A stretch of DNA of 32,788 bases, from NCBI GenBank assembly GCA_029942545.1, contig GCA_029942545.1_4114.3, one strand, 5' to 3'. The notes beneath the pieces are model-generated. The model was not told the DNA's origin. It saw only the letters and a list, made by a program, of their open reading frames with translations, and did not search any database. This document shows, one piece after another, positions 13,061 through 30,160 of the stretch. Source of the DNA: a phage. The first letter of the stretch is position 1. Every line of letters begins with the position of its first letter. Position numbers and translations under genes: made by a program.

Positions 13061-13067
13061 CTATATT

Positions 13068-13870: not shown

Positions 13871-13877
13871 TATTATA

Positions 13878-15065: not shown

Positions 15066-15130
15066 AAATTCCTCCTTTATTCATTATACTATATTTAATA
15101 CAAATAAGAAAGCCAGTACAGAGTACTGGC
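15066..15130 (-). promoter_or_regulatory. terminator-promoter-RBS cassette
   Basis: Same cassette; hairpin GCCAGTACTCTGTACTGGC. Confidence 0.65.
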
Positions 15131-15136
15131 ATTAAA

Positions 15137-16285: not shown

Positions 16286-16350
16286 ATTTCCCTCCTTTAT
16301 TCATTATACTATATTTAATACAAATAAGAAAGCCAGTACAGTGTACTGGC
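16286..16350 (-). promoter_or_regulatory. terminator-promoter-RBS cassette
   Basis: Same cassette; hairpin GCCAGTACACTGTACTGGC. Confidence 0.65.
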
Positions 16351-16356
16351 ATTATA

Positions 16357-17496: not shown

Positions 17497-17561
17497 ATTT
17501 CCCTCCTTTATTCATTATACTATATTTAATACAAATAAGAAAGCCAGTACTCTGTACTGGC
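17497..17561 (-). promoter_or_regulatory. terminator-promoter-RBS cassette
   Basis: Same cassette; hairpin GCCAGTACAGAGTACTGGC. Confidence 0.65.
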
Positions 17562-17567
17562 ATTATG

Positions 17568-18677
17568 TTATTTTGGTAAATCAATTTTAGTAAAGACTGC
17601 AACATCCTCGATTGCACCTGGAATGGCGTAATACGATCCAGTACTATACACATCTCCATTTTTGGTTAATATCGATGTCAAACCATCACTAAAAAGAACA
17701 TCCCTAATCTCACTAACTTCAACGGGTAATTGTAAATTGGTAGCACTATATATAGCACCAGTTTGAGAATTGTTTAATCCCAAACCACGGTTCGCCCCAA
17801 CACCCTTCTGATATGTACTAGTAATTACCATTTGTGTAGCAGTATTTAAGGCAGGTGAATTCGTCATAAACAACGGAGAACTATTAGGCAAAGTACTTAC
17901 AGGAACGGCACGGAATGTAGTCGTGCCTGAACTAAGAAAGTTTGGAGTTTGACCACATACGAAATATGATGTACCATTATAGTAATTTAATGCATTACCA
18001 CCAATGGCTGCATCGATTACACCAGAACTACGCAATCCCCAAGTGTTAATTTGTGTTTGGTTCCCCGTACCATGCTGCCCACTACTATTCCATCCAGAAC
18101 TATATAGCTTATTATCTAATGTAAGATACATACTATCATTCGCATTGGTCATTACTTTACGAACGTTCGTAGCACATTGAGTTAATGTGTAAATTGATGA
18201 GGAACCAATACCCAAAGAACCACGATATCCATTATCTCCTGCACCATAGAGTACTGAATTAGTGCTAAGTACAAATATTAAACCATTTGTACATACAATA
18301 TTAGCAATTTCACTTACTGGTATAGCATTGGTAAACCAATTAGTTCTTTCAACTAATACAGTACTGTAAGAAGTAGTTGTAGAAGATGAGAACCAGTACG
18401 TTTGACCTGATGTCCATATCGTATTATCATTTTTAATAATAACAAGTGTACGATCACCCACGAAAAAATTAGAAACATCTGCACTTACTAATGTCCACGA
18501 AGACACCGTGTTGGTATTACCATTTCCAGATTCACCACCTTGATTTCTACCTATGTAATATAAATCATGTGAATCAGTCAATAAGAATTGGCCTTGGGTA
18601 GAAGCACCAACTTTAATTATTTTTTTAGGACCAGGGACAATATTTCCATACCTAATCATTCTTCCAAAAGGTAACAT
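17568..18677 (-). CDS. RCC1-like repeat protein with MLPFGRMIRYGNIVP leader
   Basis: ORF track 17568..18698, start moved to MLPF ATG; GGAGGG SD overlaps stop of upstream gene (coupled); motif GWNSSGQHGTGNQT. Confidence 0.8.
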   Translation of the reverse strand: MLPFGRMIRYGNIVPGPKKIIKVGASTQGQFLLTDSHDLYYIGRNQGGESGNGNTNTVSSWTLVSADVSNFFVGDRTLVIIKNDNTIWTSGQTYWFSSSTTTSYSTVLVERTNWFTNAIPVSEIANIVCTNGLIFVLSTNSVLYGAGDNGYRGSLGIGSSSIYTLTQCATNVRKVMTNANDSMYLTLDNKLYSSGWNSSGQHGTGNQTQINTWGLRSSGVIDAAIGGNALNYYNGTSYFVCGQTPNFLSSGTTTFRAVPVSTLPNSSPLFMTNSPALNTATQMVITSTYQKGVGANRGLGLNNSQTGAIYSATNLQLPVEVSEIRDVLFSDGLTSILTKNGDVYSTGSYYAIPGAIEDVAVFTKIDLPK

Positions 18678-18685
18678 ATTCCCTC

Positions 18686-19888
18686 CTATTGTTGCCATAA
18701 CTGCGTTGGCATTAATGTTAGTGTAGTAATACTATAAGTACCATTAGGTAATCTACCACCATTTCCATTCCAGCCACCACATGCATATAATTTATAATCT
18801 TTAGTAATTATTATGGTTCTGCTCCAATCTTTAGATGCCATAAGAACATTGTCATAACCACCACTTATTGCACTAAGATTAAAAATATTCCAAGTTCTAA
18901 CTAATGTATTAGTTCCATTACCTTCTTGACCATATGAGTTAGCACCACTACTTCTAACATATGGTGCGTATTGTGCCATAGGTGCACCAATTGATGCATT
19001 TCCCATATTACTTGGACAAATAAAAGTACTGTACTTACTTACATCAACCGTGACCGATGTGTTCCTAATTGGTGTTAGCTGATTTACCGATGTAGTCGTA
19101 CCATTACCAGCTTGTCCAGTACTGTTAACCCCGCTATAATATACAGACCCACCAGTAGTAAACCACCAAGTAACATCGTATGTAGTACTAATATGTTCTA
19201 CATTACTAATCACGAATTTGTTCAAATATACAACAGAACTACCACCACATCCACTTTCACCAAAGTTATCCTTACCACAAAACCATGCATCTTTATTTGA
19301 TTTGATATAGTGCGTTCCTTGTAATGAACATGCCATATGTGTAACTTCACCCATATTAGTCATAACTGTGAGTGTAGGGATGGAATTTTTATTACCAGAG
19401 CCACATTCACCATTAGTATTTCTTCCACACGCAATTACTCTACCATCGGTTAATAATATTCTAGTACTTTCACCTATATATACACTCTTGATCATATTAG
19501 CCATAACACCTATTTTATTAAATGCAACAGTAACATCAGTCCATGTTGTCAAATAACCATTAACAGGTGTTGCATCTCCATAATCAGAAAATGCAGCCAC
19601 AGACCCAGTGTAGTATATTTTATTATCCAAATCAATCATCAATGAACCTTGAACACCAAGCCAAAAGGCTGCACAGTTCCTTGCAAGTACTGTAAATGAC
19701 GAAACTGCTGCTGAATTCCCAAGACCAAATTGGTAAAAGTTATTACTACCATAACCATATAAAGTATTAGTTGGGTTATGGAGATACATACAGTTTGTAT
19801 AATGTTGTTGTAAAACATCTGAGAACTCTACAGGTTCTGGACCTGGTGCAATATTTGCGTACTTAACCATTCTTCCAAAAGGTAACAT
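18686..19888 (-). CDS. RCC1-like repeat protein with MLPFGRMVKYANIAP leader (first gene of array)
   Basis: ORF track 18686..19906, start moved to MLPF ATG; motifs CGRNTNGECGSGN, SGVNSTGQAGNGTT. Confidence 0.8.
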   Translation of the reverse strand: MLPFGRMVKYANIAPGPEPVEFSDVLQQHYTNCMYLHNPTNTLYGYGSNNFYQFGLGNSAAVSSFTVLARNCAAFWLGVQGSLMIDLDNKIYYTGSVAAFSDYGDATPVNGYLTTWTDVTVAFNKIGVMANMIKSVYIGESTRILLTDGRVIACGRNTNGECGSGNKNSIPTLTVMTNMGEVTHMACSLQGTHYIKSNKDAWFCGKDNFGESGCGGSSVVYLNKFVISNVEHISTTYDVTWWFTTGGSVYYSGVNSTGQAGNGTTTSVNQLTPIRNTSVTVDVSKYSTFICPSNMGNASIGAPMAQYAPYVRSSGANSYGQEGNGTNTLVRTWNIFNLSAISGGYDNVLMASKDWSRTIIITKDYKLYACGGWNGNGGRLPNGTYSITTLTLMPTQLWQQ

Positions 19889-19936
19889 ATTTCCCTCCTT
19901 ATTCATTATATCATATTTACCCCATAAAGAAAACCC
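19889..19936 (-). promoter_or_regulatory. promoter/RBS of first array gene (variant, no hairpin)
   Basis: Minus strand GATATAATGAATAAGGAGGGAAAT then ATG; shares a divergent intergenic region with the plus-strand promoter at 19937. Confidence 0.5.
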
Positions 19937-19990: not shown

Positions 19991-20218
19991 ATGACAAATA
20001 CTCTTAAGTACTACCTCAATACTCTAAATGAACTAGAGTACGGGGAATTTCTCTCGGATAGTTCGTGGCTAATTGAGCTAAAAAATTATAATAGTCCAGG
20101 ATGCACCCTTATGATGAACAATGCAATTGATACCCTCATTGTGAGTATTTTACACAGCAACATCTGCGGGGATAGCAATAAACAATTATCAAAAATCTTA
20201 GTACTGCTATCTATATGA
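19991..20218 (+). CDS. small protein, ~60-aa paralog family member
   Basis: ORF track; AAGGAG SD; family features (N-terminal YY, central C-rich motif, hydrophobic C-terminus). Confidence 0.7.
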   Translation: MTNTLKYYLNTLNELEYGEFLSDSSWLIELKNYNSPGCTLMMNNAIDTLIVSILHSNICGDSNKQLSKILVLLSI

Positions 20219-20418
20219 ACATTGAACAGTACTACATCGATGCACTACCAACAAAAGGTCTACGAGAAAGCCTACTGTATACACAAAATACTTTTATACA
20301 CTACAAACGTTGTCCTAAACTCCTGAACTCGTACAGGAGTAATATCATAAGAAATGCTTTACAAGGGGCAGAAAGTATGCAATACTATTATATCCTTGCC
20401 CTTTTAATCGAGTACTAA
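20215..20418 (+). CDS. small protein, paralog family member
   Basis: ORF track; 4-nt overlap with upstream gene; motifs MNIEQYYID, ends LALLIEY. Confidence 0.7.
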   Translation: MNIEQYYIDALPTKGLRESLLYTQNTFIHYKRCPKLLNSYRSNIIRNALQGAESMQYYYILALLIEY

Positions 20419-20419
20419 T

Positions 20420-20629
20420 ATGAATACTGAACATAAAGAATTCTACACCAAATACCTTAGCAACGAAGAACAATTGTTTCTAAGGAGTGTATCACCTGTA
20501 AGTACCAATACTCACTTCGGTAGAGATTGCTTTAATAATTGTATACGTAGTACTCTAGAAGCAATCGAATGCAATAACAAAAATATTATGTACTCAGGTT
20601 TAATAGGACTAATCTACTTCTATGAATAA
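20420..20629 (+). CDS. small protein, paralog family member
   Basis: ORF track; starts MNTEHKEFYTKYL; central FNNCIRS. Confidence 0.7.
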   Translation: MNTEHKEFYTKYLSNEEQLFLRSVSPVSTNTHFGRDCFNNCIRSTLEAIECNNKNIMYSGLIGLIYFYE

Positions 20630-20816
20630 TCATAAAGATTTCTATGGTAGTAAACTACACAAGCAAGACCAGCTATCATTCTCTTTAGCACCACCTATGA
20701 GAAAGGATAATCTATATTACAATTACGATTTCAGGATGGCGACACGTTATGCAATAGAACATCAGTTCCCTGAAACTAAGTACCGCTCTATCCTGAACCT
20801 CATCTTTAAGTTCTAA
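20622..20816 (+). CDS. small protein, paralog family member
   Basis: ORF track; starts MNNHKDFY; 8-nt overlap with upstream gene. Confidence 0.65.
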   Translation: MNNHKDFYGSKLHKQDQLSFSLAPPMRKDNLYYNYDFRMATRYAIEHQFPETKYRSILNLIFKF

Positions 20817-20826
20817 AAGGTGCTAT

Positions 20827-21036
20827 ATGAAAACTACAAACATTCATCAGTACTACATAGATATTCTCCCTAAAGATGTACAGTTCATACTTAAACAAGA
20901 ATTCAGTACTTTAAAAAAACTAAAAAGAACCGCACCTTCAGCAATCATCCAGCACCAAAAAAATGTCGTGCGTAATATACTACAAGGTACACCAGGGACC
21001 GAGTACTTTAATATAGTAAGGCTAATTACATTATAA
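20827..21036 (+). CDS. small protein, paralog family member
   Basis: ORF track; starts MKTTNIHQYYIDILP; resembles 20215..20418. Confidence 0.7.
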   Translation: MKTTNIHQYYIDILPKDVQFILKQEFSTLKKLKRTAPSAIIQHQKNVVRNILQGTPGTEYFNIVRLITL

Positions 21037-21221
21037 TGAATCATATAAGCTACTACTACCAACAACTATCCGACAGAGACAAGTACAGTCACAACTCCCA
21101 TGTGTGGTACTACAAACGCGGCAGTATAAGAGACAAACAACATTACTTCTGTATTTCTATTAAAGAAGCACTGACAACTAAGTACACGTACCGAGCAGTA
21201 ATTAAACTTATTGAAATGTAA
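21036..21221 (+). CDS. small protein, paralog family member
   Basis: ORF track; ends KYTYRAVIKLIEM, matching the next gene's KYTYREVMKLIAI. Confidence 0.7.
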   Translation: MNHISYYYQQLSDRDKYSHNSHVWYYKRGSIRDKQHYFCISIKEALTTKYTYRAVIKLIEM

Positions 21222-21229
21222 GGAAGAAA

Positions 21230-21412
21230 ATGAACATAGAATTCTATTTAACTAAACTACAACACGCCGAAAGATTCAACTTCAATAAGTTCAATATTTT
21301 CTACAATTGCGGGAACAAAAAAGATAAACACACCTTCCTATATGTCGTCACAAGAGATGCACAAAACGAAAAGTACACATACAGAGAAGTAATGAAACTA
21401 ATCGCTATTTAA
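21230..21412 (+). CDS. small protein, paralog family member
   Basis: ORF track; close paralog of 21036..21221. Confidence 0.7.
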   Translation: MNIEFYLTKLQHAERFNFNKFNIFYNCGNKKDKHTFLYVVTRDAQNEKYTYREVMKLIAI

Positions 21413-21420
21413 GGAATACT

Positions 21421-21600
21421 ATGCAACAATTCTATAGAGAACGTATAACCATAAAAGACCGTTTCATGTACGACACCTTCGTGAAGTACTACAAACTAGG
21501 AACAAAAAGTACTAAAAATATTAATCTCAATAGCTGCATTTATGCTGTACTAACACAAGATAATCCCTACAGGGAAATCCTCGCCCTGGCATCTATATAA
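21421..21600 (+). CDS. small protein (59 aa), probable paralog family member
   Basis: Not in ORF track (below 60 aa); hand-called ATG about 21421 after AAGGA SD, stop TAA about 21598-21600; fills the only gap in the array; starts MQQFYRERI. Confidence 0.5.
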   Translation: MQQFYRERITIKDRFMYDTFVKYYKLGTKSTKNINLNSCIYAVLTQDNPYREILALASI

Positions 21601-21610
21601 AGGAAACCAA

Positions 21611-22282
21611 ATGAAACTTAATGCACACAGCAAACAATACCTTAAGCACTTTAAGTACCTCAATAGTATTCAGGCAGAATCAGTTACATCTGCATATACG
21701 TATCACCCGAATGTACTAAAGAAACGAAATAAAAAGGAAAAATCCAGTACAAATGGAGTTAACGTATCAAAGAACCTTGAATTGTACATGAAGAAAAATA
21801 ATATAGCTGTTCATTATATGAATATCTATAATACTGATTTAAAAGTATTGAGTACTAATACGAGCACAAAGGTACTAAAGAACGCATCCTTCATCATCAA
21901 TATGCAGTTGGATAATACCCCGTGCACTTTAATGCTATACTTCGGGAATACATACTTCTTCGGGAATTGTAACACCTCCCACGATGTCAATACAGCACAA
22001 TTCCAAATGGGTGGCATATACTCTACTGATGCAGAAAAAGTACACGAGAATATGCACTTCTGGCAAGCACAACGTACAGAAGAAACTGATACAGTACTAC
22101 AATTCCTCAAAGAACTAGAACACAAAGAACTACAGGAAGAAGAACTATTCATGTACAGTACTGTAATCGATAATCCAGTACTCTATAAAAACGCGTACAA
22201 TCTGACAAAACATGTACAGGAACTTATCAGTACTAATAAGAAAATGCATCACCTCATTACGTATATTACAAACTATGTATAA
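21611..22282 (+). CDS. hypothetical protein (223 aa) embedded in the small-ORF array
   Basis: ORF track; AAGGAAACC SD-like; no family motifs. Confidence 0.7.
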   Translation: MKLNAHSKQYLKHFKYLNSIQAESVTSAYTYHPNVLKKRNKKEKSSTNGVNVSKNLELYMKKNNIAVHYMNIYNTDLKVLSTNTSTKVLKNASFIINMQLDNTPCTLMLYFGNTYFFGNCNTSHDVNTAQFQMGGIYSTDAEKVHENMHFWQAQRTEETDTVLQFLKELEHKELQEEELFMYSTVIDNPVLYKNAYNLTKHVQELISTNKKMHHLITYITNYV

Positions 22283-22457
22283 AGAATACTACAGGGAACA
22301 TCTCCCAATGCATCTCCAGCACCATATACCAACAGAACCAATAGGAATAAAAGATCACGCAAAGATAATGTTTCAACAATGTACTAAGTACACGCTCATA
22401 TACGATGATAATCCATATATGCTGTACTACGTAGTAATGTTAACATTCAGGTACTAA
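22275..22457 (+). CDS. small protein, paralog family member
   Basis: ORF track 22212..22457; start moved to internal ATG (MYKEYYREHLP) that matches family N-termini and overlaps the upstream stop. Confidence 0.7.
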   Translation: MYKEYYREHLPMHLQHHIPTEPIGIKDHAKIMFQQCTKYTLIYDDNPYMLYYVVMLTFRY

Positions 22458-22458
22458 C

Positions 22459-22644
22459 ATGTATAAAGAATACTACATAGAGAAACTCCCAATGTATCTC
22501 CAACACCTTGTACCAACAGAACCATTGGGTATAGAAAAAAACTACGAAAAAGACTACTTCATTCAGTGCACTAAATCCTCGATATATATTGAAGACTATA
22601 ATCGAGTACTGTATCACATCCTTTTACTAATATATAGGTACTAA
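22459..22644 (+). CDS. small protein, paralog family member
   Basis: ORF track; MYKEYYIEKLP ... LLLIYRY; 1-nt intergenic gap. Confidence 0.75.
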   Translation: MYKEYYIEKLPMYLQHLVPTEPLGIEKNYEKDYFIQCTKSSIYIEDYNRVLYHILLLIYRY

Positions 22645-22645
22645 T

Positions 22646-22828
22646 ATGCACAAAGAATACTACACACAATTTCTCCCCAGCATTTTTGAACACTACGCCA
22701 GATACAAAGTCCCCCTGGATAACGATTTGGCAGTACTGGGATTCAATAACTGCATAGAACGAAGTATAGAAAATAGTAGTAGTTATGACCAGCTATATAA
22801 CACTATCCTACTTATATTCAGGTACTAA
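22646..22828 (+). CDS. small protein, paralog family member
   Basis: ORF track; MHKEYYTQFLP ... ILLIFRY. Confidence 0.75.
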   Translation: MHKEYYTQFLPSIFEHYARYKVPLDNDLAVLGFNNCIERSIENSSSYDQLYNTILLIFRY

Positions 22829-22829
22829 C

Positions 22830-23018
22830 ATGCATAAAGAATACTACACAAAATATTTCCCAATGTACCTCAGAACTAATCTATTAGATAAACCTCGCGG
22901 TATCAATGCACAAAATGATAAAGTGTATTTTACTATGTGCACTAAAGCATGTATACTAGATTTTGACAGCTATCATCGAGTACTGTATCATACCCTGTAC
23001 CTAGCTTTCGTATTCTAA
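22830..23018 (+). CDS. small protein, paralog family member
   Basis: ORF track 22785..23018; start moved to ATG 22830 (MHKEYYTKYFP) matching family. Confidence 0.7.
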   Translation: MHKEYYTKYFPMYLRTNLLDKPRGINAQNDKVYFTMCTKACILDFDSYHRVLYHTLYLAFVF

Positions 23019-23027
23019 GAGAACAAT

Positions 23028-23213
23028 ATGCATAAAGAATTCTACTTAAGCCATCTGGATCTAAACTCCCAAATGCTTATACCACTAATCCCAATAGATA
23101 TCAAGGATAAGAAAAATACCGAACAATTCATTTACCATACACAGTGTGCGATCACCCCAAATTACATTCCATATGAATTGTACTACATTCTCGCCCTAAT
23201 ATATAGGTACTAA
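23028..23213 (+). CDS. small protein, paralog family member
   Basis: ORF track; MHKEFYLSHL ... LALIYRY. Confidence 0.75.
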   Translation: MHKEFYLSHLDLNSQMLIPLIPIDIKDKKNTEQFIYHTQCAITPNYIPYELYYILALIYRY

Positions 23214-23214
23214 T

Positions 23215-23400
23215 ATGCATAGAGAATACTACACACAATTTGTTAAAGGGAACTACAAACATGCCGTACCCAGAACCCCTTTAAATTCTCATGACCCAAG
23301 TACTATATTCTTGTTTAATGACGCAATACGTACAGTACTCAATACTAAAGATGAAGATGTGCAGTACGTATTCTTACTATTACTTATATACAGACACTAA
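23215..23400 (+). CDS. small protein, paralog family member
   Basis: ORF track; MHREYYTQFV ... LLLIYRH. Confidence 0.75.
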   Translation: MHREYYTQFVKGNYKHAVPRTPLNSHDPSTIFLFNDAIRTVLNTKDEDVQYVFLLLLIYRH

Positions 23401-23405
23401 CTAAT

Positions 23406-23588
23406 ATGAATAAAGAACATAAAGAATTCTATATAAGAAAACTAACATTCGTCCCCGTAAGAATATATAAAGAATGCGACCCAAGATTATACCTATGGCA
23501 CTTCAATGAGTGCATAAAAGATTCTATATACCCTAAGAACTATAAAGAACAATTGTGCTCAGTACTAACACTAGTACTATCATATTAA
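23406..23588 (+). CDS. small protein, paralog family member
   Basis: ORF track; MNKEHKEFYIRKL; central FNECIKDSIY. Confidence 0.7.
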   Translation: MNKEHKEFYIRKLTFVPVRIYKECDPRLYLWHFNECIKDSIYPKNYKEQLCSVLTLVLSY

Positions 23589-23603
23589 TTAATAGAGAAT
23601 ACT

Positions 23604-23795
23604 ATGTATAAAAACTTCTATATAAGTAAACTAAAAGAAAATGAACAAGTATGGATTAGATCTATAATTCCACTGGCATTTAATAGATATGCATTTAACA
23701 GATGTACCGAGATTGCTATAGACCCTTATAATATTAAAGAGAATGTACAGTATAATCAGTACTACTATATCTTAATGCTTATATATAGGAAGTAA
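23604..23795 (+). CDS. small protein, paralog family member (last of array)
   Basis: ORF track; MYKNFYISKL ... ILMLIYRK. Confidence 0.7.
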   Translation: MYKNFYISKLKENEQVWIRSIIPLAFNRYAFNRCTEIAIDPYNIKENVQYNQYYYILMLIYRK

Positions 23796-23909
23796 TTAAA
23801 CACAAGTAGACAGGGGAAGCTCCTAGTGAACAACCTTTATGTACAGGCGAATTGTTAAAATTCAGCCTGGACAAATGCGATCACTAGGATTCTCCCCAGG
23901 CTAAACCCC

Positions 23910-24000
23910 GTAATCATAGGTAGTCATAAGTAATCATATATAAACATTTAAGTAATCATTTATAATCACTGTAGTGATCAGTAGTGATCAGTAGTGAGTA
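23910..24000. repeat. direct repeats: GTAATCA-type heptamers and three tandem 10-bp units
   Basis: GTAATCAT occurs at least 3 times with a related TAATCAC, followed by AGTAGTGATC x3 in tandem (about 23970-24000). Confidence 0.6.
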
Positions 24001-24129
24001 CTAGAGTACAGGAATGTTCACGTTTAATCAAGAACGTAGCAGTACTGATATGTCACTAAGTAGGCAGAGGAAGTCTGCCGTACTTTTTAGTTTCCAAGCT
24101 CCTTTTCCATTTTTCAAATTACATCAAAT

Positions 24130-24164
24130 GTAATCAAAAGTAATCACGCAATGATTAGTACTGA
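24130..24164. repeat. GTAATCA repeats including an inverted pair
   Basis: GTAATCAAAAGTAATCACGCAATGATTAG: two direct copies plus inverted TAATCA/TGATTA around CGCAA. Confidence 0.55.
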
Positions 24165-24423
24165 ATTATTACTTTCACCTTAATTACAATTACCCTTTTA
24201 CCCGTCGGGGTAAAATTCCATTACCCCTTGAGGCTCCAGCAAAAAGTTGGTTAGTACTCCATCCTAAATCTCGATCCTAAAAATTTTGGAGTACCTATGA
24301 AATAAAAGTTGGATCTTCGAAAGTTGAAATTTACGTTGGGACGTTTATGATTTGTGGGATATAATGATGTTTGTAGACGGGTAGTTCTCAAGAATATCAG
24401 TACTGAATAATGAAAGAAAGTTA

Positions 24424-24451
24424 TTGACATTATGATTCAGTACTGTATAAT
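24424..24451 (+). promoter_or_regulatory. strong sigma70-like promoter in ORF-free region
   Basis: TTGACA (24424-24429), 16 nt containing CAGTACTG, TATAAT (24446-24451); no ORF of meaningful length downstream. Confidence 0.55.
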
Positions 24452-24457
24452 GTTCTA

Positions 24458-24656
24458 CATAGAGAGATGAGTTGCTGCCAACAATTCATTTACTCTACCT
24501 CCTGTCGTGAGACAGTACAGAAAAGATAGTTCCTCCTGTGGTGGTACATCTTTTTGAACCTCATATGAAAATCGTAATAACAGTACTGATATTAACAGAA
24601 TGGTGTCAGTACTGATTTTAATCTAAAGCATTATGCCACCAGCTTGTGCTGGTGGA
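24458..24656 (+). ncRNA. candidate small non-coding RNA (about 200 nt)
   Basis: Downstream of promoter 24424-24451; longest ORF about 20 aa; two CCTCCTGT(C/G)GTG copies (anti-SD-like CCUCCU); ends at 8-bp hairpin CCACCAGC-ttgt-GCTGGTGG (24636-24655) without a clear U-tract. Confidence 0.25.
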
Positions 24657-24796
24657 TTCCCTCTAACAGTATTCAGTACTACATGATAGTCTTCATCCTC
24701 CTAGGGTAACATAGTGAGGGCTATGATGGCAGTACTGAATACTCCTTTCACAAGATAGATCTATGGTATAGTACTGACGGATTTTGGGCGTAGTTA

Positions 24797-24968
24797 CCCT
24801 GGATGGATTTTGGACGTAGATATGTCTAGCCCTCCAGAAGTCTGGAAGTAAAGATGGCTATCCATCTAGACGGCTAGACGGCTAGATTTCTGGATGGCTG
24901 GATGGCTAGACGTTTGGACGGCTAAACGGCTAGATGGTTACACGTCTGGAAGTATAGACGGCTAAATC
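24797..24968. repeat. iteron-like array of short direct repeats
   Basis: Repeated 7-11 bp words: ACGGCTA(G/A)A x5, TGGATGG x3, TTGGACG x2, GTCTGGAAGTA x2, mostly in one orientation at roughly 9-11 bp spacing. Confidence 0.6.
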
Positions 24969-25130
24969 AAAATTTTATTTTGTTTTTTCCAATAGTTCCC
25001 CTACCGCGTGGGGATAGTTTCCCCGCAGTATCTGGAGTTAGATTTTTCTGAATCTGGAATCATTATCTTATAAACTGGGGGCAATGTCAACGGCCTGGAC
25101 GGATATTTTTAAAAATTTTTTCAGTACTGA

Positions 25131-25182
25131 ATTTTGGGCGTAACTATGCACCCGGTGGGCTTGAGTCTTTCTCGACTTGATG
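25131..25182 (+). repeat. ~50-nt repeated element, copy A
   Basis: ATTTTGGGCGTAACTATGCACCCGGTGGGCTTGAGTCTTTCTCGACTTGATG; shares ATTTTGGGCGTAA, GCACCC and CTTTCTCG..T.ATG blocks with copies at 25347 and 28955. Confidence 0.5.
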
Positions 25183-25245
25183 AAAATATTATAGCAGTAC
25201 TGAAAAAATAAAGCAATACCCTAAACGCAAAAAGTTTTAATTAAT

Positions 25246-25274
25246 TTGCTTGCCATCCTGGGGCGTACTATGAT
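25246..25274 (+). promoter_or_regulatory. possible promoter (TTGCTT -35-like, TATGAT -10)
   Basis: TTGCTT, 17 nt, TATGAT, upstream of repeated element copy B; weak match. Confidence 0.25.
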
Positions 25275-25346
25275 ACTATTATTCAGTACTGAGAAAGTGC
25301 TATGACCTGCTAAGGTGCGGGAGTGTATCCTTTTTAAATTATATGA

Positions 25347-25399
25347 ATTTTGGGCGTAATTCCGCACCCCCCAGGGGTATCCGCTTTCTCGCGTCTATG
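25347..25399 (+). repeat. ~50-nt repeated element, copy B
   Basis: ATTTTGGGCGTAATTCCGCACCCCCCAGGGGTATCCGCTTTCTCGCGTCTATG. Confidence 0.5.
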
Positions 25400-25657
25400 T
25401 AGTAATTATACGCTTTTTCGGTGCTGAGTCAATAGCTAAAAACAAAATAATTGAAAATAATTTAACGCGTTTAAACGGCCCGTAAAGCCCTGGTTAGCTG
25501 GTGGCGGTGCAAATGTATAGCTTAGGTGTATTAATGCGTTAGAAAGCGGCTGAGGCCGTTTTATGGGGTGTATAGTAGTGATTTGGTTGATTCAGTACTG
25601 AAAGATAGTTCCCCTATATAGAAAGAAAACTATTTTAAAAGTATTTGTAGAAAGTAC

Positions 25658-25720
25658 TTGCAAAGTATTGGGAAAGGTGTAGAATGTTTTACATCGAGAC
25701 GGGGGATACGCTCCCGACTC
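25658..25720 (+). promoter_or_regulatory. early-type promoter plus downstream stem-loop (PeSL-like)
   Basis: AGTACTTGCAA, 16 nt, TAGAAT, GTTTTACATC, then GGGGGATACGCTCCC hairpin; gene 25743 follows. Confidence 0.55.
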
Positions 25721-25742
25721 ACTTTTAAAAGAGATTAAAACG

Positions 25743-26105
25743 ATGGCGACTCAAATCAATACTATCATGCTTAACCTGGTTTCTTTCCGTGAAGAGATGA
25801 AAGATCTTCCCGCTGAGACTGTACGGATTCACATTGCAGCTTATCGGGAATTGATTGCAATGTTACCGCTTAAGCGTGAACAGTATGCAGCTACTGCAAT
25901 GCTGGACGCAATGATACATAAGATGATCCAGACTGATTTAACGATGGCTTATCAGTACATGGGCGAAATGTTTGCAGTGTATAGCAAGCCAGTACCAGGA
26001 ATGGAAAGTACAGAAGTATTGCACGGCTTAAACTTAAAACAAGATGCATGGGATAATATGCCTCGTTTCCTGGTATGGGCTGATAGTGGAAAGATTTACG
26101 AATAA
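25743..26105 (+). CDS. hypothetical protein (120 aa)
   Basis: ORF track; downstream of promoter/stem-loop; GC-richer codon choice. Confidence 0.7.
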   Translation: MATQINTIMLNLVSFREEMKDLPAETVRIHIAAYRELIAMLPLKREQYAATAMLDAMIHKMIQTDLTMAYQYMGEMFAVYSKPVPGMESTEVLHGLNLKQDAWDNMPRFLVWADSGKIYE

Positions 26106-26119
26106 GTTTAATAAAGTAC

Positions 26120-26178
26120 TTGCAAACTAAGTTTAAAAGCGTATAATGTTTTACATCAGGTGGGGAATAGTTCCCCAC
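26120..26178 (+). promoter_or_regulatory. early-type promoter plus stem-loop (PeSL-like)
   Basis: TTGCAA (26120-26125), 16 nt, TATAAT (26142-26147), GTTTTACATC, hairpin GTGGGGAATAGTTCCCCAC. Confidence 0.6.
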
Positions 26179-26198
26179 TATATAAGAGGATTAAAAAA

Positions 26199-26438
26199 AT
26201 GGCTAAATCAAAAATGTTCTTAGGTCACAAAAACAAAACTCAATGGAATGTAAGCCTTTGGATTAATAACGACGAATCATTATACCGGTTGGCCCAGGAC
26301 TTTATTGCCGCTAACACTAATCGTAATGATGCGGCCCGTCATATGATGCTATTTTTAGAACAGACTGGACAAGATAAAACACCGGACGGCTTTAAGTATA
26401 GCACTACTGCGATCCGTGCGGCGATGGTTGGAATGTAA
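26199..26438 (+). CDS. hypothetical protein (79 aa)
   Basis: ORF track 26160..26438; start moved to ATG 26199 (MAKSKMF) after AGAGGA SD; the longer ORF would begin inside the 5' stem-loop. Confidence 0.7.
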   Translation: MAKSKMFLGHKNKTQWNVSLWINNDESLYRLAQDFIAANTNRNDAARHMMLFLEQTGQDKTPDGFKYSTTAIRAAMVGM

Positions 26439-26459
26439 GAGAATAGATTAAAAGTACTA

Positions 26460-26484
26460 TTGCACGGTGATAGTACTTTATAAT
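26460..26484 (+). promoter_or_regulatory. possible promoter
   Basis: AGTACTATTGCAC ... TTTATAAT upstream of gene 26521; spacer about 13 nt for TTGCAC, so register is uncertain. Confidence 0.3.
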
Positions 26485-26520
26485 AGATTTCTTTTATACA
26501 ACAACGATAGGGGTAACAGC

Positions 26521-26787
26521 ATGAATATTATATACTTTGCAACGCGTGAACTTGCTCGGATTGCCGCACGCCAGGACGGGGCGACGTTTAAAGATATGGG
26601 CGTACAATCTGAACGTGGTAAACGTTGGGCCGTAGTAAAGCAAAGTACAGCCCGATCAATTCAGTACTGGCTATCTGCTTTAAAGCGTCCTGATAGTGTA
26701 TCGCGTCGCGTGGTAGAAATAAAGCACGACCGCAAGGGCAACCGCGTTACAGTGTACAGTACTAAAAAGATTGCAGTACTTGAATAA
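26521..26787 (+). CDS. hypothetical protein (88 aa), basic
   Basis: ORF track 26467..26787 (GTG start); start moved to ATG 26521 (MNIIYFATREL) after AGGGGT SD. Confidence 0.65.
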   Translation: MNIIYFATRELARIAARQDGATFKDMGVQSERGKRWAVVKQSTARSIQYWLSALKRPDSVSRRVVEIKHDRKGNRVTVYSTKKIAVLE

Positions 26788-26908
26788 AAGTACTTGACCG
26801 TTATCCGGCTTAGTGAGATAATACTTACAAGCCGGACACAAGGCGATAGCCCATAGGGTGCGGGAGTGTATCTATAGGAAAGTACTAAAAACTATTTTCA
26901 AAAAGTAC

Positions 26909-26936
26909 TTGCAAACTATGTTTAAAGGCGTATAAT
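26909..26936 (+). promoter_or_regulatory. early-type promoter
   Basis: TTGCAA, 16 nt, TATAAT, GTTTTACATC; followed by a ~90-nt leader with a 9-codon mini-ORF (MKNSPDKIV). Confidence 0.55.
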
Positions 26937-27026
26937 GTTTTACATCAGGACGGGGAATGAAATAAGTAACTCCCTGTTAAGTAGTCCAGGAGTAAGACGT
27001 ATGAAAAACTCCCCTGATAAAATAGT

Positions 27027-27054
27027 TTGACAATAGAAAGTAAAAGCGTATAAT
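27027..27054 (+). promoter_or_regulatory. early-type promoter
   Basis: TTGACA (27027-27032), 16 nt, TATAAT (27049-27054), ACTTACATC. Confidence 0.6.
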
Positions 27055-27086
27055 ACTTACATCAACTAATGAATGAGGGTTACAAA

Positions 27087-27698
27087 ATGAAAACTATCAC
27101 TACTACTACTTTTGTTATGGCTTTTTCTGAACTGAACGCAGAACAACAAACGGCGGCTATCGAACTGGTTCGGGATCGGGAACGTGCAAGTGAGGATAAT
27201 TTCTTTGCTGAATCAGTACTGGAATACTATAAAGAAACAGTACTACCAGAATACGGCATAGATGAAGCTGAATTGCAATACAGTGGTTTTTGGTCGCAAG
27301 GTGACGGTGCATCAATCAGTACTGACCACGTTGACGCTGAGAAGTTTTTACGCAAGGTTAAGGCGTTAACGAAATATCGTTCCATCCGTCACCTGTTGAA
27401 CGAAGATGATTTGGAAATGAGTGTAGAACGTTCCCAATCGCGTTATGCACACGAAAACACGGTAGGCGGTTGCGTTGATACTCGCTACACTGATTTAACT
27501 GTAAAACAGGCTGCATTAGCTGAGGATCTGGAAAACTTACTGACTGATACTATCCGAGAATTATCTTGTAAGCTGTACCGTGATTTAGAAAATGCTTATG
27601 AAGACCAGTTTACTACTGAAAACATTGTAGCACTGATCGAGGGTAACGAATATCAATTTAACGTTATCGACGATGTAGTAGAATCTATCGCATATTAA
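27087..27698 (+). CDS. hypothetical protein (203 aa), acidic
   Basis: ORF track 27069..27698; start moved to ATG 27087 (MKTITTT) after GAGGGT SD; the 27069 ATG has no SD. Confidence 0.7.
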   Translation: MKTITTTTFVMAFSELNAEQQTAAIELVRDRERASEDNFFAESVLEYYKETVLPEYGIDEAELQYSGFWSQGDGASISTDHVDAEKFLRKVKALTKYRSIRHLLNEDDLEMSVERSQSRYAHENTVGGCVDTRYTDLTVKQAALAEDLENLLTDTIRELSCKLYRDLENAYEDQFTTENIVALIEGNEYQFNVIDDVVESIAY

Positions 27699-27715
27699 TT
27701 CAGTACTGAATCAAT

Positions 27716-27735
27716 GGCGGGGAATGGTTCCCGCC
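27716..27735 (+). promoter_or_regulatory. solo stem-loop of the PeSL type (no promoter)
   Basis: GGCGGGGAATGGTTCCCGCC between genes 27087 and 27757, preceded by TTCAGTACTGAA palindrome. Confidence 0.5.
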
Positions 27736-27756
27736 TATATCCCAGGAGTAAGAGAA

Positions 27757-27993
27757 ATGATCGAACAAATCAAAACTACAACACCAAACGTAACGGGTAC
27801 AGTATCACACTTCATTGGTGACGATTCGCGGGGCGTTCCCTATTGTGCGGTACATGTAAACCAAAATGGCGACTACTGGCTAACGGTTTACGGTTCTTAT
27901 TCTTTCGGGCGTAGTGCACACCAAAAGATCCTGGATAAAGTACAACCAACGGGTAAAAATATCACCGCTGAGATGTTTTATAAAAAGCACTAA
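27757..27993 (+). CDS. hypothetical protein (78 aa)
   Basis: ORF track 27724..27993; start moved to ATG 27757 (MIEQIKTT) after AGGAG SD; the longer ORF would start inside the stem-loop. Confidence 0.65.
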   Translation: MIEQIKTTTPNVTGTVSHFIGDDSRGVPYCAVHVNQNGDYWLTVYGSYSFGRSAHQKILDKVQPTGKNITAEMFYKKH

Positions 27994-28000
27994 AAAGTAC

Positions 28001-28059
28001 TTGCAAAGTAATTAGATTAACGTATAATACTTTATATCGAGAGCGGGAATAGTTCCCGC
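28001..28059 (+). promoter_or_regulatory. early-type promoter plus stem-loop (PeSL-like)
   Basis: TTGCAA (28001-28006), 16 nt, TATAAT (28023-28028), hairpin GCGGGAATAGTTCCCGC. Confidence 0.6.
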
Positions 28060-28078
28060 CTTTACTGAGGATTATCTA

Positions 28079-28363
28079 ATGAGTAAAGTAATAAAGTACA
28101 ATGTGTTAAGCAAGTCATTGTCTATAAGTGAGTGCACCGATGGTTTTTGGCTGTACGATGAAACGCGTGGCATGAATTTAGCTATGCAGGAGAAAACTAC
28201 TGATGCGGCATATCTTAAAGCACTGGAATACTACCAGAAGCGTTTAAAGGAAGTAGAAAACGATTATAATAACCTGAAAGCGAAAGTAGATCATTTCATC
28301 GGGCAAGTGGTAGAAGATGACGAGGACGGGCACTACTGCGACCGTTGCGGATCTTACAATTGA
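28079..28363 (+). CDS. hypothetical protein (94 aa) with C-terminal CxxC
   Basis: ORF track; TGAGGA SD; C-terminus HYCDRCGSYN. Confidence 0.7.
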   Translation: MSKVIKYNVLSKSLSISECTDGFWLYDETRGMNLAMQEKTTDAAYLKALEYYQKRLKEVENDYNNLKAKVDHFIGQVVEDDEDGHYCDRCGSYN

Positions 28364-28380
28364 GTACTGAGGATTATCTA

Positions 28381-28584
28381 ATGAGTGATTTAATTAAACG
28401 TATCAAAGAGCTTGAAGAAAAAGAATTGCAGTTGATCGGGTTACGGAATAAAGTATTCCATGATTTAGGTGGCTTCATTAATGCCTGGGATAGTGGCGAT
28501 CCTGATGCGTTACCTGCTAACCGCCAGGCGATGATCAATGATGTGCGTGGTGTCTTTGATTATGTTTTAAAGCAATTAAATTAA
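28381..28584 (+). CDS. hypothetical protein (67 aa)
   Basis: ORF track 28345..28584; start moved to ATG 28381 (MSDLIKRIKEL); its 5' leader CTGAGGATTATCTAATGAGT duplicates that of gene 28079. Confidence 0.65.
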   Translation: MSDLIKRIKELEEKELQLIGLRNKVFHDLGGFINAWDSGDPDALPANRQAMINDVRGVFDYVLKQLN

Positions 28585-28592
28585 AAAAGTAC

Positions 28593-28652
28593 TTGCAATT
28601 AGTTTCCAGTACTGTATAATAGTTTACATCAAGGGGAGAAATGGTTCTCCCC
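28593..28652 (+). promoter_or_regulatory. early-type promoter plus stem-loop (PeSL-like)
   Basis: TTGCAA (28593-28598), 16 nt containing CAGTACTG, TATAAT (28615-28620), hairpin GGGGAGAAATGGTTCTCCCC. Confidence 0.6.
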
Positions 28653-28671
28653 ACTAATAAGGAGTTTTACA

Positions 28672-28893
28672 ATGGCTAATATCACTACTCTTTCCCAGCT
28701 TGAAGCACTGGTTAAATCTATGCGGGCACATGCTGACAATATTGGCGTAGAAGATCCCGCAGTATGTTTTTGCGACGAAATAAATGATGATACGCTCGTC
28801 ATTGCAGAAGTGCAAGACGTTTCTAACTATTCATCGCGTTACACTGGCGGCGTAGCAAAGAAAGGTGATTTTTGTTTATATCTTACTAAGTAA
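28672..28893 (+). CDS. hypothetical protein (73 aa)
   Basis: ORF track; AAGGAG SD; followed by terminator. Confidence 0.7.
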   Translation: MANITTLSQLEALVKSMRAHADNIGVEDPAVCFCDEINDDTLVIAEVQDVSNYSSRYTGGVAKKGDFCLYLTK

Positions 28894-28897
28894 TACA

Positions 28898-28926
28898 GAG
28901 GGGATCAAACGATCCCCTTTATTTTG
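28898..28926 (+). terminator. intrinsic terminator
   Basis: AGGGGATC-aaac-GATCCCCT stem then TTTATTTT. Confidence 0.7.
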
Positions 28927-28954
28927 CAGTACTGAATCATTTAATAGACGGATC

Positions 28955-28992
28955 TATGCACCCTGTGGGTTAGTGACTATCTCGTCTTTATG
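28955..28992 (+). repeat. ~50-nt repeated element, copy D (3' blocks only)
   Basis: TATGCACCCTGTGGGTTAGTGACTATCTCGTCTTTATG, located between terminator 28898-28926 and promoter 29061. Confidence 0.4.
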
Positions 28993-29060
28993 TAAGTATT
29001 ATGCCAGTACTGGATGCAGTTGTCAAGACTTTTTTTTCAAATACTTTTATATTAAAGTAC

Positions 29061-29117
29061 TTGATAATAGTTTTTAAATGCGTATAATGTTTTACATCTA
29101 ATCGGGAATACTCCCTA
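29061..29117 (+). promoter_or_regulatory. early-type promoter with weak downstream hairpin
   Basis: TTGATA, 16 nt, TATAAT (29083-29088), GTTTTACATC, GGGAATACTCCC. Confidence 0.5.
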
Positions 29118-29138
29118 GTACTAACAAAGGATATACAA

Positions 29139-29438
29139 ATGAAAACTGCAATCATCGCCCTGGCTTTATCTGTTTCCTCTTTCGCTGTTAACGCTTCCGT
29201 TGATGTACCGAAAGAAAAATTCATTCAGTGCACTGTTGCAATGACTAACGAGGAAACGGCTGAGATCGTTACCAAATCCCTGGAACTGGCCCCTGCAATG
29301 TTTGCTAATGGCCCGTACCATGAAGAAGATGATCAGGGTAGCACGACCATCTATTACGATGCAAAAAGTAAACGCGGTTCTGTCACTGTAATGGATACAG
29401 AGAAAGTTACATTCACTGGCGTAATTAATTGTTTATAA
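29139..29438 (+). CDS. small secreted/periplasmic protein (Sec-type signal peptide)
   Basis: ORF track; N-terminus MKTAIIALALSVSSFAVNA then SVD: basic n-region, hydrophobic core, AxA-type cleavage site; AAAGGA SD. Confidence 0.75.
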   Translation: MKTAIIALALSVSSFAVNASVDVPKEKFIQCTVAMTNEETAEIVTKSLELAPAMFANGPYHEEDDQGSTTIYYDAKSKRGSVTVMDTEKVTFTGVINCL

Positions 29439-29454
29439 TATAGTACTGAATCAC

Positions 29455-29487
29455 TAGCCCACTTATACAGTGGGCTTTTTTGTTTTT
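29455..29487 (+). terminator. intrinsic terminator
   Basis: AGCCCACT-tataca-GTGGGCT then TTTTTTGTTTTTG; preceded by TAGTACTGAATCACT. Confidence 0.75.
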
Positions 29488-29535
29488 GTAGTATCGTAGT
29501 ACTGGTATACTTTGAAAATAGTTTTAAAAAAGTAG

Positions 29536-29563
29536 TTGACATTACCAGGGAAAAGCGTAGAAT
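29536..29563 (+). promoter_or_regulatory. early-type promoter
   Basis: TTGACA (29536-29541), 16 nt, TAGAAT, GTATTACATC; followed by ~100-nt leader with mini-ORF MKNWTRQTNFDKLT. Confidence 0.55.
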
Positions 29564-29677
29564 GTATTACATCAAGACGGGGAACATTAAGTAGACCGCC
29601 AGTAAGTCGAATGAAAAACTGGACACGTCAAACAAACTTTGATAAACTAACTTAAACTTTAATTGAGGATTTATAAA

Positions 29678-30160
29678 ATGGCTAATGTAAAATCATTTCT
29701 GAAAGCACTGATTTCTAACGATACTGTTATTGCTGCTGAATTGCTGGCTGACCTGGATAATGATACCATGAAAGCAGTACGCAACAATTTTAACATTGCT
29801 TACAGTGAAGCGAAAGAACTACAAGCCAAAAAGGTAGCAGAACTGGAAGAACAGAAAAAAGCCCGTGAAGCAGAACTGCAAGCAACAATAGAAAGTATTC
29901 AGGCGGCGGTGTCTGGTTTAGATCTGGAAGTGGTTATTGAAATGGCTCATAAAGCCCTGGCGGTTAAGTACGGTGAAGATAAGCCGGAATCTAAGCCTAA
30001 AAAATGGATTCAAGAACGTGTTACTGTTGTCCTTGATAACGGGGAAGAACATTTGATTCCTGTACGCGGTAACTGCATTGCGGTAGTACTGGATGCTATT
30101 AAAGAAAGCGGTATGACTCGCGAGGAATGGATCGAAGCTCACCGCAAAATTGAAGCATAA
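29678..30160 (+). CDS. hypothetical protein (160 aa), Ala/Glu/Lys-rich, helical
   Basis: ORF track 29663..30160; start moved to ATG 29678 (MANVKSF) after GAGGAT SD. Confidence 0.7.
   Translation: MANVKSFLKALISNDTVIAAELLADLDNDTMKAVRNNFNIAYSEAKELQAKKVAELEEQKKAREAELQATIESIQAAVSGLDLEVVIEMAHKALAVKYGEDKPESKPKKWIQERVTVVLDNGEEHLIPVRGNCIAVVLDAIKESGMTREEWIEAHRKIEA

Follow-up and report, generated by a model that had tools for sequence, protein, structure and literature searches.

A strand-specific two-hairpin RNA leader predicted downstream of repeated sigma-70 promoters in the terminal repeats of RaK2-like jumbo phages

We analysed a 32,788-nt stretch of phage DNA (contig GCA_029942545.1_4114.3 of GenBank assembly GCA_029942545.1; hereafter the window), in which an earlier sequence-only reading had noticed a dispersed element of about 50 nt, with copies scattered between positions 24776 and 28992. 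We found that this element appears to be a promoter-proximal, strand-specific, structured RNA leader. From about +1 to +52, it forms the predicted beginning of the transcripts of a separate class of near-consensus sigma-70 promoters, which we call class B. It can be traced through a whole group of jumbo phages and represents a conserved, clade-wide, previously unannotated regulatory RNA motif, the function of which is predicted.

All three copies reported earlier were recovered: the pattern GCACCC-N-GGG-N-CTNTCTCG occurs exactly at 25148-25174 (copy 1), 25364-25391 (copy 2) and 28958-28984 (copy 3) only, and in none of 100 shuffles, and a gap-free alignment of copies 1 and 3 covers 64 nt with 78% identity. 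The direction in which they had been read has to be reversed, as the element is oriented on the minus strand and its RNA is the complement of the strand that was read. Each of the three copies lies directly downstream of a near-consensus sigma-70 promoter of the minus strand, with the predicted start at the A of a CAT located 7 nt after the -10 hexamer. The conserved ATG, rightly described as not followed by an open reading frame (ORF), is the complement of this CAT; no ORF was found there, which rules out a plus-strand ORF or peptide starting at this site. The repeated unit is real but longer than the proposed ~50 nt, since it comprises a -35/-10 promoter and ~51 transcribed nt, usually followed by an AGTACTG box. 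As for the blocks regarded as conserved, CTTTCTCG corresponds, on the other strand, to a variable hairpin loop in one of its versions (C-GAGAAA-G, loop plus closing pair) and is not family-wide. The motif ATTTTGGGCGTA has exact matches at 24781, 25131 and 25347 and a copy with a single mismatch at 24807; the fragment seen at 24781 is thus present, but in the RNA sense the motif forms the 3' end of the element and not its 5' end. Together with two plus-strand members that had been missed, the window holds five members in total.

Class B promoters share the consensus TTGAC(A/T)-N16-18-(T/C)AT(A/T)AT-N5-CAT and are found on either strand, with the orientation of the element relative to its own promoter being constant. 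A strict pattern containing CGAGANAG retrieved from IMG/VR only the same three copies in phage 121Q and chance matches; therefore, this block is not family-defining and the search was re-anchored on CC..GGGTGC preceded by a promoter. The family collected in this way consisted of 54 candidate instances from seven phage genomes, including two chance matches and one instance with a mis-assigned promoter. Across these 54 candidates, the distance from the promoter to GGGTGC is fixed at 27-28 or 31-35 nt on both strands.

In the RNA sense, the common plan reads as follows: the promoter, a variable 5' part of 12-22 nt, a hairpin with an adjoining dinucleotide, (A/G)CCC-A(Y)N-GGGU-GC, and a 3' block R-N-A-R-N-U-S-Y-R-U-C-Y-A, of which the ATTTTGGGCGTA motif represents one version (ACGCCCAAAAU), other versions being UGUAUCUAU and CCGUCUAUU. 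The first hairpin (H1) has a stem of 3-4 bp, free in sequence but compensating, and an A-rich loop of 6-8 nt; it is missing from a short subtype (12/51 sequences). The second hairpin (H2), (A/G)CCC-A(Y)N-GGGU, is near-invariant, with a CCC/GGG stem save for a few double compensations (ACCU/AGGU, ACUC/GAGU) and with a base pair that is either A-U or G·U. From H2 to the block, the distance hardly ever varies, with no gaps in the 51 sequences of our first set and one insertion in the 98 of the second.

Both helices are supported by compensatory change, which in H1 is extensive. In a seed alignment of 16 sequences, the two helices were paired in 95% of cells compared with 71% after shuffling (none of 500 shuffles as high), and all four H1 pairs vary on both sides; the covariance model built from this seed gave 56 matches in 480 kb. 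The first set (51 distinct sequences) was paired at 94.5% vs 73.9% shuffled and the second (98 distinct IMG/VR sequences, which overlap the first largely in phage genomes such as CBB and 121Q and add others) at 94.1% vs 72.0%, again with 0/500 shuffles reaching these values. Single H1 pairs of the first set occur, for example, as GC 23 / CG 14 / GU 2 and CG 16 / GC 12 / AU 9 / UA 1. As MAFFT applied to all long-type leaders shifts the H1 stems out of register, we used the register-consistent seed and covariance-model alignment instead. Model-fitted alignments bias such pairing counts toward structure, which is partly offset by RNAalifold, predicting the same two helices independently, and by an alignment-free test, in which 38/39 long-type leaders form a hairpin of at least 3 bp (shuffled mean 22.6, maximum 31). 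G·U pairs outnumber A·C pairs 28:0 in the first set and 59:1 in the second (87:1 overall), and since an A·C pair is a G·U pair on the opposite strand, the pairing belongs to the promoter-sense strand. Hence, of the three identities offered by the sequence-only reading (small structured RNA, protein-binding site or relic mobile mini-element), the structured RNA is the best supported, although on the strand opposite to the one that was read. A third conserved hairpin in or after the 3' block was rejected, as the AUAGA/UCUAU and GGGUG/CGCCC pairings exist only in subsets; likewise, the long-range AGACG/CGUCU stem in the minimum free energy (MFE) fold of copy 3 was not seen in other copies inspected by eye.

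The window comes from an Asteriusvirus-type jumbo coliphage: its positions 24500-29400 share 95.6% identity with Escherichia phage 121Q, and with further Asteriusvirus jumbo phages the identity is 86-89%. Asked for elsewhere in the genome, the element was found at about ten copies per genome across the whole phage clade. Members were detected in phages G17 and EC22.5-2 (Escherichia), fENko-Kae01 (Klebsiella aerogenes), Muenster (Klebsiella pneumoniae), CBB (Pectobacterium) and Kaldavass (Erwinia), with further copies in Salmonella phage 7t3; overall, they span RaK2-like phages of Escherichia, Klebsiella, Salmonella, Pectobacterium, Erwinia and Cronobacter. The IMG/VR contigs with several matches are all phage contigs of 345-378 kb, including RaK2, GAP32, CBB and 121Q. 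In turn, a stricter pattern applied to bacterial and archaeal genomes (596 Gb) gave three single matches vs about four estimated by chance. The element is not a member of any curated RNA family: Rfam gave no match at gathering score in the whole window and, at E-values up to 5, only an unrelated snoRNA model (E 2.4) outside the element within 24000-29400. ARAGORN detected no tRNA or tmRNA gene in the window. The literature on CBB, RaK2, Sharanji and fEgEco12 does not mention the element, and we found no transcript maps of these phages.

The copies are confined to a particular part of these genomes. Several related phage records begin near this part of the window; position 1 of phage vB_Ec-M-J aligns to window position 24059, and in the record of this phage 1-21525 is annotated as direct terminal repeats. 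PhageTerm gave a direct terminal repeat (DTR) of 20,993 bp for the relative fEgEco12, and restriction digests confirmed it (PMC13070987). Position 24059 thus marks the left physical end of a ~21-kb DTR, which places the window copies in its first 5 kb. The first ~1.7 kb of the DTR contain no ORF of at least 60 aa. In the complete genome of EC22.5-2 (351,992 bp), members were located by a regular-expression scan and the covariance model only at 30.8-49.6 kb, the DTR equivalent, and neither scan detected a member in the remaining ~300 kb. Similarly, fENko-Kae01, Muenster and CBB each carry about 10-13 members inside their annotated repeats.

Within the DTR, we distinguished three genetic contexts. 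Copies in the same sense as the genes are followed, roughly 55-60 nt past the element, by an ordinary early promoter (AAAGTACTTGCAA...TATAAT) and then a gene. Copies antisense at gene 3' ends are followed by AGUACUG and an A-rich linker up to a two-way terminator, whose distance is constant at 21-23 nt, giving a predicted RNA of ~100 nt; copy 3 is of this type, and its ~22-nt terminator distance recurs in paralogues and orthologues. The third context is represented by convergent pairs with starts about 110-125 bp apart. An AGTACT box is located within 0-18 nt after nearly every element.

As for the function, we favour, tentatively and with somewhat less than even confidence, a recognition site and a pause serving as a loading checkpoint on the nascent RNA. 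The element would act on host RNA polymerase during its own transcription, through a hairpin-stabilised (his-type) pause about 42 nt after the start, with H2 doubling as a site that is specifically recognised, either by RNA polymerase itself or by a factor of the phage or host. At this checkpoint, very early transcripts would either stop at the next terminator/AGTACT site or read on; the DTR occurs twice in the phage DNA and is presumably the part that enters the cell first. The pause consensus known from NET-seq studies has G at -10, a pyrimidine at -1 and G at +1, and a plain pause hairpin requires structure only. Since H2 is conserved in its sequence too, we propose it as a recognition site as well. 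Counting the always-pyrimidine position as -1, a purely geometric reckoning with the pause site assumed, the last base of H2 stands at -11 in 51/51 sequences of the first set and 97/98 of the second. G at -10 (51/51 and 96/98), U at -3 (48/51 and 91/98), and a pyrimidine at -1 and a purine at +1 (both 51/51 and 98/98) accompany it. Pause hairpins act once the stem reaches -11 to -13, and -10, -1 and +1 are the most enriched consensus positions (PMC11077087). A sigma-dependent pause from a -10-like hexamer in the block was rejected, with its key A2 and T6 conserved in only 68% and 40%, respectively. In its broadest form, the proposal would define a new class of cis-acting nascent-RNA element: a clade-wide programming of RNA polymerase by an invariant recognition hairpin and a ~42-nt pause at roughly ten of the strongest DTR promoters, forming a multi-copy checkpoint at which a factor of the phage or host would switch the earliest transcription on or off or carry it past terminators. 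This wider claim is put forward with slightly more reserve than the checkpoint itself.

Several observations weigh against a pausing checkpoint. The +1 base is A in 30/51 and 67/98 sequences instead of the G of consensus pauses, and a stem of only 4 bp under a 3-nt loop makes H2 rather small for a pause hairpin. Beyond the proposed pause, U at +2, C at +3 and A at +5 are conserved as well, which the pause model does not require and which suggests recognition of the block itself; protein binding, either by the invariant H2 or by the fixed-distance block, is possible. About 40% of the copies point against genes or sit in convergent pairs, so that the product of read-through is not obvious, and Pfam searches on the neighbouring genes yielded only DUF7249 and a weak DUF1033 match, with no candidate factor among them. 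Start sites, pausing and RNA ends are all predicted. Finally, the antisense copies with their terminator at a constant ~22 nt resemble a self-contained small-RNA gene.

This last point leads to a reading that we consider possible but doubtful, namely that each unit encodes a short non-coding RNA (~50-100 nt), produced abundantly and very early, the conserved part of which would work after transcription: H1 and the 5' end would protect the RNA, while H2 and the block would bind, titrate or guide a host or phage protein, as a sponge, decoy or chaperone-dependent small RNA. It is strongest for the antisense copies, where a strong promoter, the 51-nt element, AGUACUG, the A-rich linker and a U-tract terminator at 21-23 nt follow one another, and where Escherichia and Klebsiella phages show 76-78% conservation over the full copy-3 unit with its terminator. 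A protein-binding site would agree with an invariant H2 beside an H1 of free sequence, the element is not followed by an ORF, and the DTR of PA5oct, a related jumbo phage, has two highly expressed non-coding RNAs (PMC7318152). Yet, the terminator at 21-23 nt characterizes the antisense copies examined and neither the same-sense copies, which have none before the next promoter and gene, nor the convergent pairs, the partners of which would yield mutually complementary RNAs. Moreover, this reading offers no explanation for the strict distance from H2 to the block, with its G at -10, pyrimidine at -1 and purine at +1, and no target or binding partner is known.

Less probable, and in our judgement unlikely, is a processive antitermination of the put or nut type, in which the nascent two-hairpin RNA would bind polymerase, alone or with a factor, and render it resistant to the terminators of the early region. 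The layout is that of HK022 putL, whose two stem-loops come just past an early sigma-70 promoter, with stem II followed by a pause at an unvarying distance (PMC9378689). Almost every small gene of the DTR is followed by a terminator, and the purine-rich H1 loops (GAGAAA, GCGAAA, AGAUAA) loosely recall boxB loops. However, the structured part spans ~35 nt compared with ~70 nt in put, a boxA-like sequence accompanies only 2/25 units, at one mismatch, and no Rfam match of any kind was obtained. Read-through from antisense or leftward copies would give only antisense RNA or run off the genome end, with the nearest minus-strand genes more than 4 kb off, behind plus-strand genes.

Conservation at the DNA level, i.e., a cassette like the PeSLs (promoter-early stem-loops) of T4-type phages, homogenised by recombination or gene conversion, or an operator or roadblock for a DNA-binding protein, with the hairpins incidental, is the least probable: synteny between the window and G17 breaks at the edges of the plus-strand unit (26796/97 and 26880/81), the terminator hairpin of distal copies overlaps the -35 as in PeSLs (PMC4122927), AGTACT boxes flank nearly all units and two solitary 3' blocks lack hairpins, but neither gene conversion nor an operator would give an H1 that varies freely and stays complementary, the 87 to 1 excess of G·U over A·C is strand-specific, H2 with its GC is not a symmetric site, and the orientation relative to the promoter is constant. 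For the idea of a relic mobile mini-element, the position of the promoter-leader module exactly at gene-cassette breakpoints gives weak support; the module is not a relic because it is intact and conserved across genera.

The five members of the window are organized as follows. In a search of 8.8 kb with the covariance model, the minus-strand copies scored 62.4 bits (copy 3, E 7e-17), 51.1 bits (copy 1) and 24.4 bits (copy 2, E 2e-5). The predicted promoter of copy 3 (28998..29026, minus strand) consists of TTGACA at 29026-29021, a 17-nt spacer with CAGTACTG and TG-CATAAT at 29003-28998, scoring 11/12 plus the extended TG in the promoter scan, with the predicted start at A28991. Its element (28940..28990) comprises H1 at 28986-28975 (GAC-GAGAUA-GUC), H2 at 28970-28960 (ACCC-ACA-GGGU), GC and spacer at 28959-28950, and the pyrimidine/purine step C28950/G28949, followed by the UCUAUU block. 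Downstream on the same strand (28900..28934) there are a CAGTACTG box at 28934-28927, an A-rich linker and a two-way terminator hairpin GGGGAUCGUUUGAUCCCC at 28917-28900; the predicted ~100-nt RNA formed by the element and this part has an MFE of -27.1 kcal/mol (z = -3.1). Copy 3 is therefore located, as described earlier, between a terminator (28900-28917) and a promoter (29061-88).

The putative promoter of copy 1 (25188..25216, minus strand) was read from the sequence; it is missing from the promoter scan list because its -35 matches at only 3/6 positions. It combines TTGCTT at 25216-25211, a 17-nt spacer with CAGTACTG and TATAAT at 25193-25188, with the predicted start at A25181. The element (25130..25180) contains H1 at 25177-25164 (AGUC-GAGAAA-GACU), H2 at 25160-25150 (GCCC-ACC-GGGU), GCAUAGUUAC at 25149-25140, the step C25140/G25139 and the block ACGCCCAAAAU, followed by CAGTACTG at 25129-25122. 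Copy 2 is preceded by a predicted promoter at 25405..25432 (minus strand; TTGACT 25432-25427, 16-nt spacer, TATAAT 25410-25405; scan 11/12) with the predicted start at A25398. Its element (25346..25397) has H1 at 25393-25382 (CGC-GAGAAA-GCG), H2 at 25378-25366 (ACCCC-UGG-GGGGU), GCGGAAUUAC at 25365-25356, the step C25356/G25355 and the block ACGCCCAAAAU, and conservation of its core reaches 90-92% in both Salmonella phage 7t3 and Klebsiella phage fENko-Kae01. The scan also lists a minus-strand promoter at 25090-25062, to which no element is attached.

On the plus strand, a divergent member (25250..25336) forms the convergent pair of the window together with copy 2. Its putative promoter, TTGCCA-18-TACTAT, lies at 25250-25279, and the model match at 25284-25336 is weak (10.9 bits, E 0.26); H1 is found at 25285-25301 (AGUAC-UGAGAAA-GUGCU), H2 at 25305-25316 (ACCU-GCUA-AGGU) and GCGGGAGUGU at 25317-25326. 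Its orthologues in G17 and Muenster carry GGGUGC, and the C-G to U-A change in H2 is compensatory. The other plus-strand member (26794..26886; model match 26828-26879, 31.8 bits) has a predicted promoter TTGACC-17-TG-GATAAT at 26794-26822, a predicted start at A26829, H1 at 26831-26844 (GCC-GGACACAA-GGC), H2 at 26849-26859 (GCCC-AUA-GGGU), GCGGGAGUGU at 26860-26869, the step U26869/A26870 and AGTACT at 26881-26886. The two solitary 3' blocks (24781..24818, minus strand) are CUACGCCCAAAAUCC in the region 24795-24781 and CUACGUCCAAAAUCC in the region 24821-24807; they have neither a promoter nor hairpins.

Other signals were noticed in the surroundings of the element. The AGTACT palindrome, often present as CAGTACTG, occurs 919 times in a 352-kb genome compared with about 119 expected from base composition, and 140 times in the 21-kb terminal repeat compared with about 7 expected. 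It extends across the whole window, being densest at 20000-30000, and is positioned in promoter spacers and abutting the -35 of ordinary early promoters (AAAGTACTTGCAA); it is likely a binding site for some regulator. The ordinary promoters form a second early class on the plus strand, AAAGTACTTGCAA-N-TATAATGTTTTACAT, at 25658-85, 26120-47, 26909-36, 28001-28, 28593-620 and 29061-88, each of which precedes a conserved leader hairpin whose loop is 3 nt long (GGGGAAUAGUUCCCC and variants) and, further on, a ribosome-binding site and a small gene. At 26909-27027 (plus strand), an ordinary early promoter, leader hairpin and ribosome-binding site precede only an 8-codon ORF (27001-27027), with the next promoter immediately after. 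A third break of collinearity with G17 is located at about 29097, at an ordinary early promoter, and whole small-gene cassettes are inserted or moved at the breaks. In turn, the region 24424-24620 (plus strand) is a candidate for a separate small RNA: downstream of a perfect TTGACA-16-TATAAT promoter there are about 165 ORF-free nt, which contain two CCUCCUGU motifs resembling anti-Shine-Dalgarno sequences and end in a long hairpin of two CAGTACTG boxes (24581-24614) and a T-run.

In the vicinity of the physical genome end at 24059 (regions 23913-24160 and 24830-24970), GTAATCA-type repeats are present on either side of the end, a hairpin GGCAG-AGGAAGT-CTGCC is located 4 nt inside, and a block of 8-nt iteron-like repeats (GGCTAGAC / GGATGGCT) lies ~800 bp inside; all three are candidate packaging or replication signals. 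In Klebsiella phage Muenster (positions 1-30), the PhageTerm-predicted left end is positioned 17 nt past the GGGUGC of an H2-like hairpin on the minus strand (GCCCACUGGGUGC). A hairpin in the first 30 nt of the genome end is also found in fENko-Kae01 and the window, with a sequence unlike that of Muenster. Just upstream of the DTR, positions 4449-19906 (minus strand) are occupied by a tandem array of about a dozen paralogous genes with RCC1-like repeats, mostly encoding proteins of ~380-405 aa and in two cases of ~250-270 aa. Three of these proteins were tested; all matched Pfam WD40_RLD (E 1e-9 to 5e-30) below the curated cut-off of the model, and two of the three also passed RCC1-repeat cut-offs. 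Copies 1 and 2 are unlikely to be promoters of this array, because it ends at 19906, more than 4 kb away and behind plus-strand genes.

RaK2-like jumbo phages (121Q, PBECO4, G17, RaK2, K64-1, GAP32, CBB and others) are widely isolated for therapy, with their regulatory logic almost unknown and their ~21-kb terminal repeat consisting almost wholly of unannotated small genes. For this repeat, two promoter classes are now defined, along with a conserved covarying RNA motif of about 150 distinct examples from at least six host genera, which makes concrete predictions: a pause near +42, short RNAs and an H2-binding factor. Should the element control RNA polymerase, it would represent a new case of transcription being controlled by nascent RNA and would supply synthetic biology with a compact, orthogonal part; should the units be small RNAs, this phage group would gain its first abundant early RNAs, with host take-over or anti-defence as candidate functions. 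The covariance model is already usable for annotating these genomes and locating their terminal repeats.

Among known systems, the lambda PR'-qut-tR' unit (6S RNA) combines a strong constitutive promoter, a promoter-proximal factor-loading pause and a nearby terminator, and yields a short RNA unless the polymerase is modified. The same logic of strong promoter, proximal pause and nearby terminator is proposed here; yet, the lambda pause is sigma- and DNA-sequence-dependent, occurs at +16/17, involves no RNA hairpins and exists in a single copy, and no Q-like factor has been identified for the element. The boxA of lambda-type nut sites (CGCUCUUA or GCUCUUUA) near the hairpin was not found in our units, other than the one-mismatch octamers in 2/25 (element plus 120 nt). 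More generally, the proposed checkpoint is analogous in logic to lambda N/nut and Q/qut and to HK022 put, while its sequence and organization are unrelated.

At the level of the genomic module, the closest parallel is provided by the PeSL cassettes of T4-type phages (PMC2839356, PMC4122927). Both are repeated composite cassettes built on near-consensus sigma-70 early promoters, here TTGAC(A/T)-16/18-TATAAT-like and about ten per DTR, concentrated among small variable genes of unknown function; both are also associated with insertion/deletion breakpoints, in our case in the one genome pair examined (window vs G17). The PeSL stem-loop is a terminator upstream of the promoter. A terminator-like stem-loop in this position (GGGATTGACTCCGGTCAGTCCCTTT) was found in distal plus-strand copies of G17, EC22.5-2 and fENko-Kae01, and at EC22.5-2 40050-49600 and G17 15430-18780 the -35 lies inside the terminator hairpin of the preceding gene (AAAGGGATTGACTCCGGTCAGTCCCTTT); none was seen at the five window promoters, where no systematic search was made. 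In contrast to PeSLs, the defining part of our module is transcribed and consists of two hairpins and a fixed-distance block, its copies are confined to the terminal repeat on both strands, and no such leader has been described for PeSLs. ORF-less units in the terminal repeat of a related jumbo phage are also known from PA5oct, where they are highly transcribed; these RNAs of 236-451 nt were reported without promoters or structure and described as dissimilar to other sequences (PMC7318152).

As an RNA, the element shares with the his- and trp-leader pause signals of E. coli (PMC6336406, PMC11077087) a hairpin with its 3' base at -11 from a pyrimidine/purine step, a (near-)invariant G at -10, a frequent U at -3 and fixed spacing. 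These pauses are single leader sites coupled to translation or RNA folding, whereas the element forms a multi-copy family without ORFs, its hairpin is also conserved in sequence and its +1 base is more often A than G. The HK022 put RNA (putL/putR) likewise follows immediately on a phage early sigma-70 promoter as a conserved two-stem-loop RNA; it acts in cis on host RNA polymerase and has a pause at a fixed distance downstream, both of which are only proposed here, and it suppresses termination and pausing via the beta-prime zinc-binding domain of the polymerase (PMC9378689). We found H1 and H2 in the corresponding place, at about +5 to +35, with no detectable sequence relation to put. The put RNA measures ~70 nt, adopts a complex tertiary fold and exists twice per genome, whereas the element consists of simple hairpins over ~35 nt, about ten per repeat. 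Among RNAs, it is put and the his-type pause signals to which the element is closest in layout.

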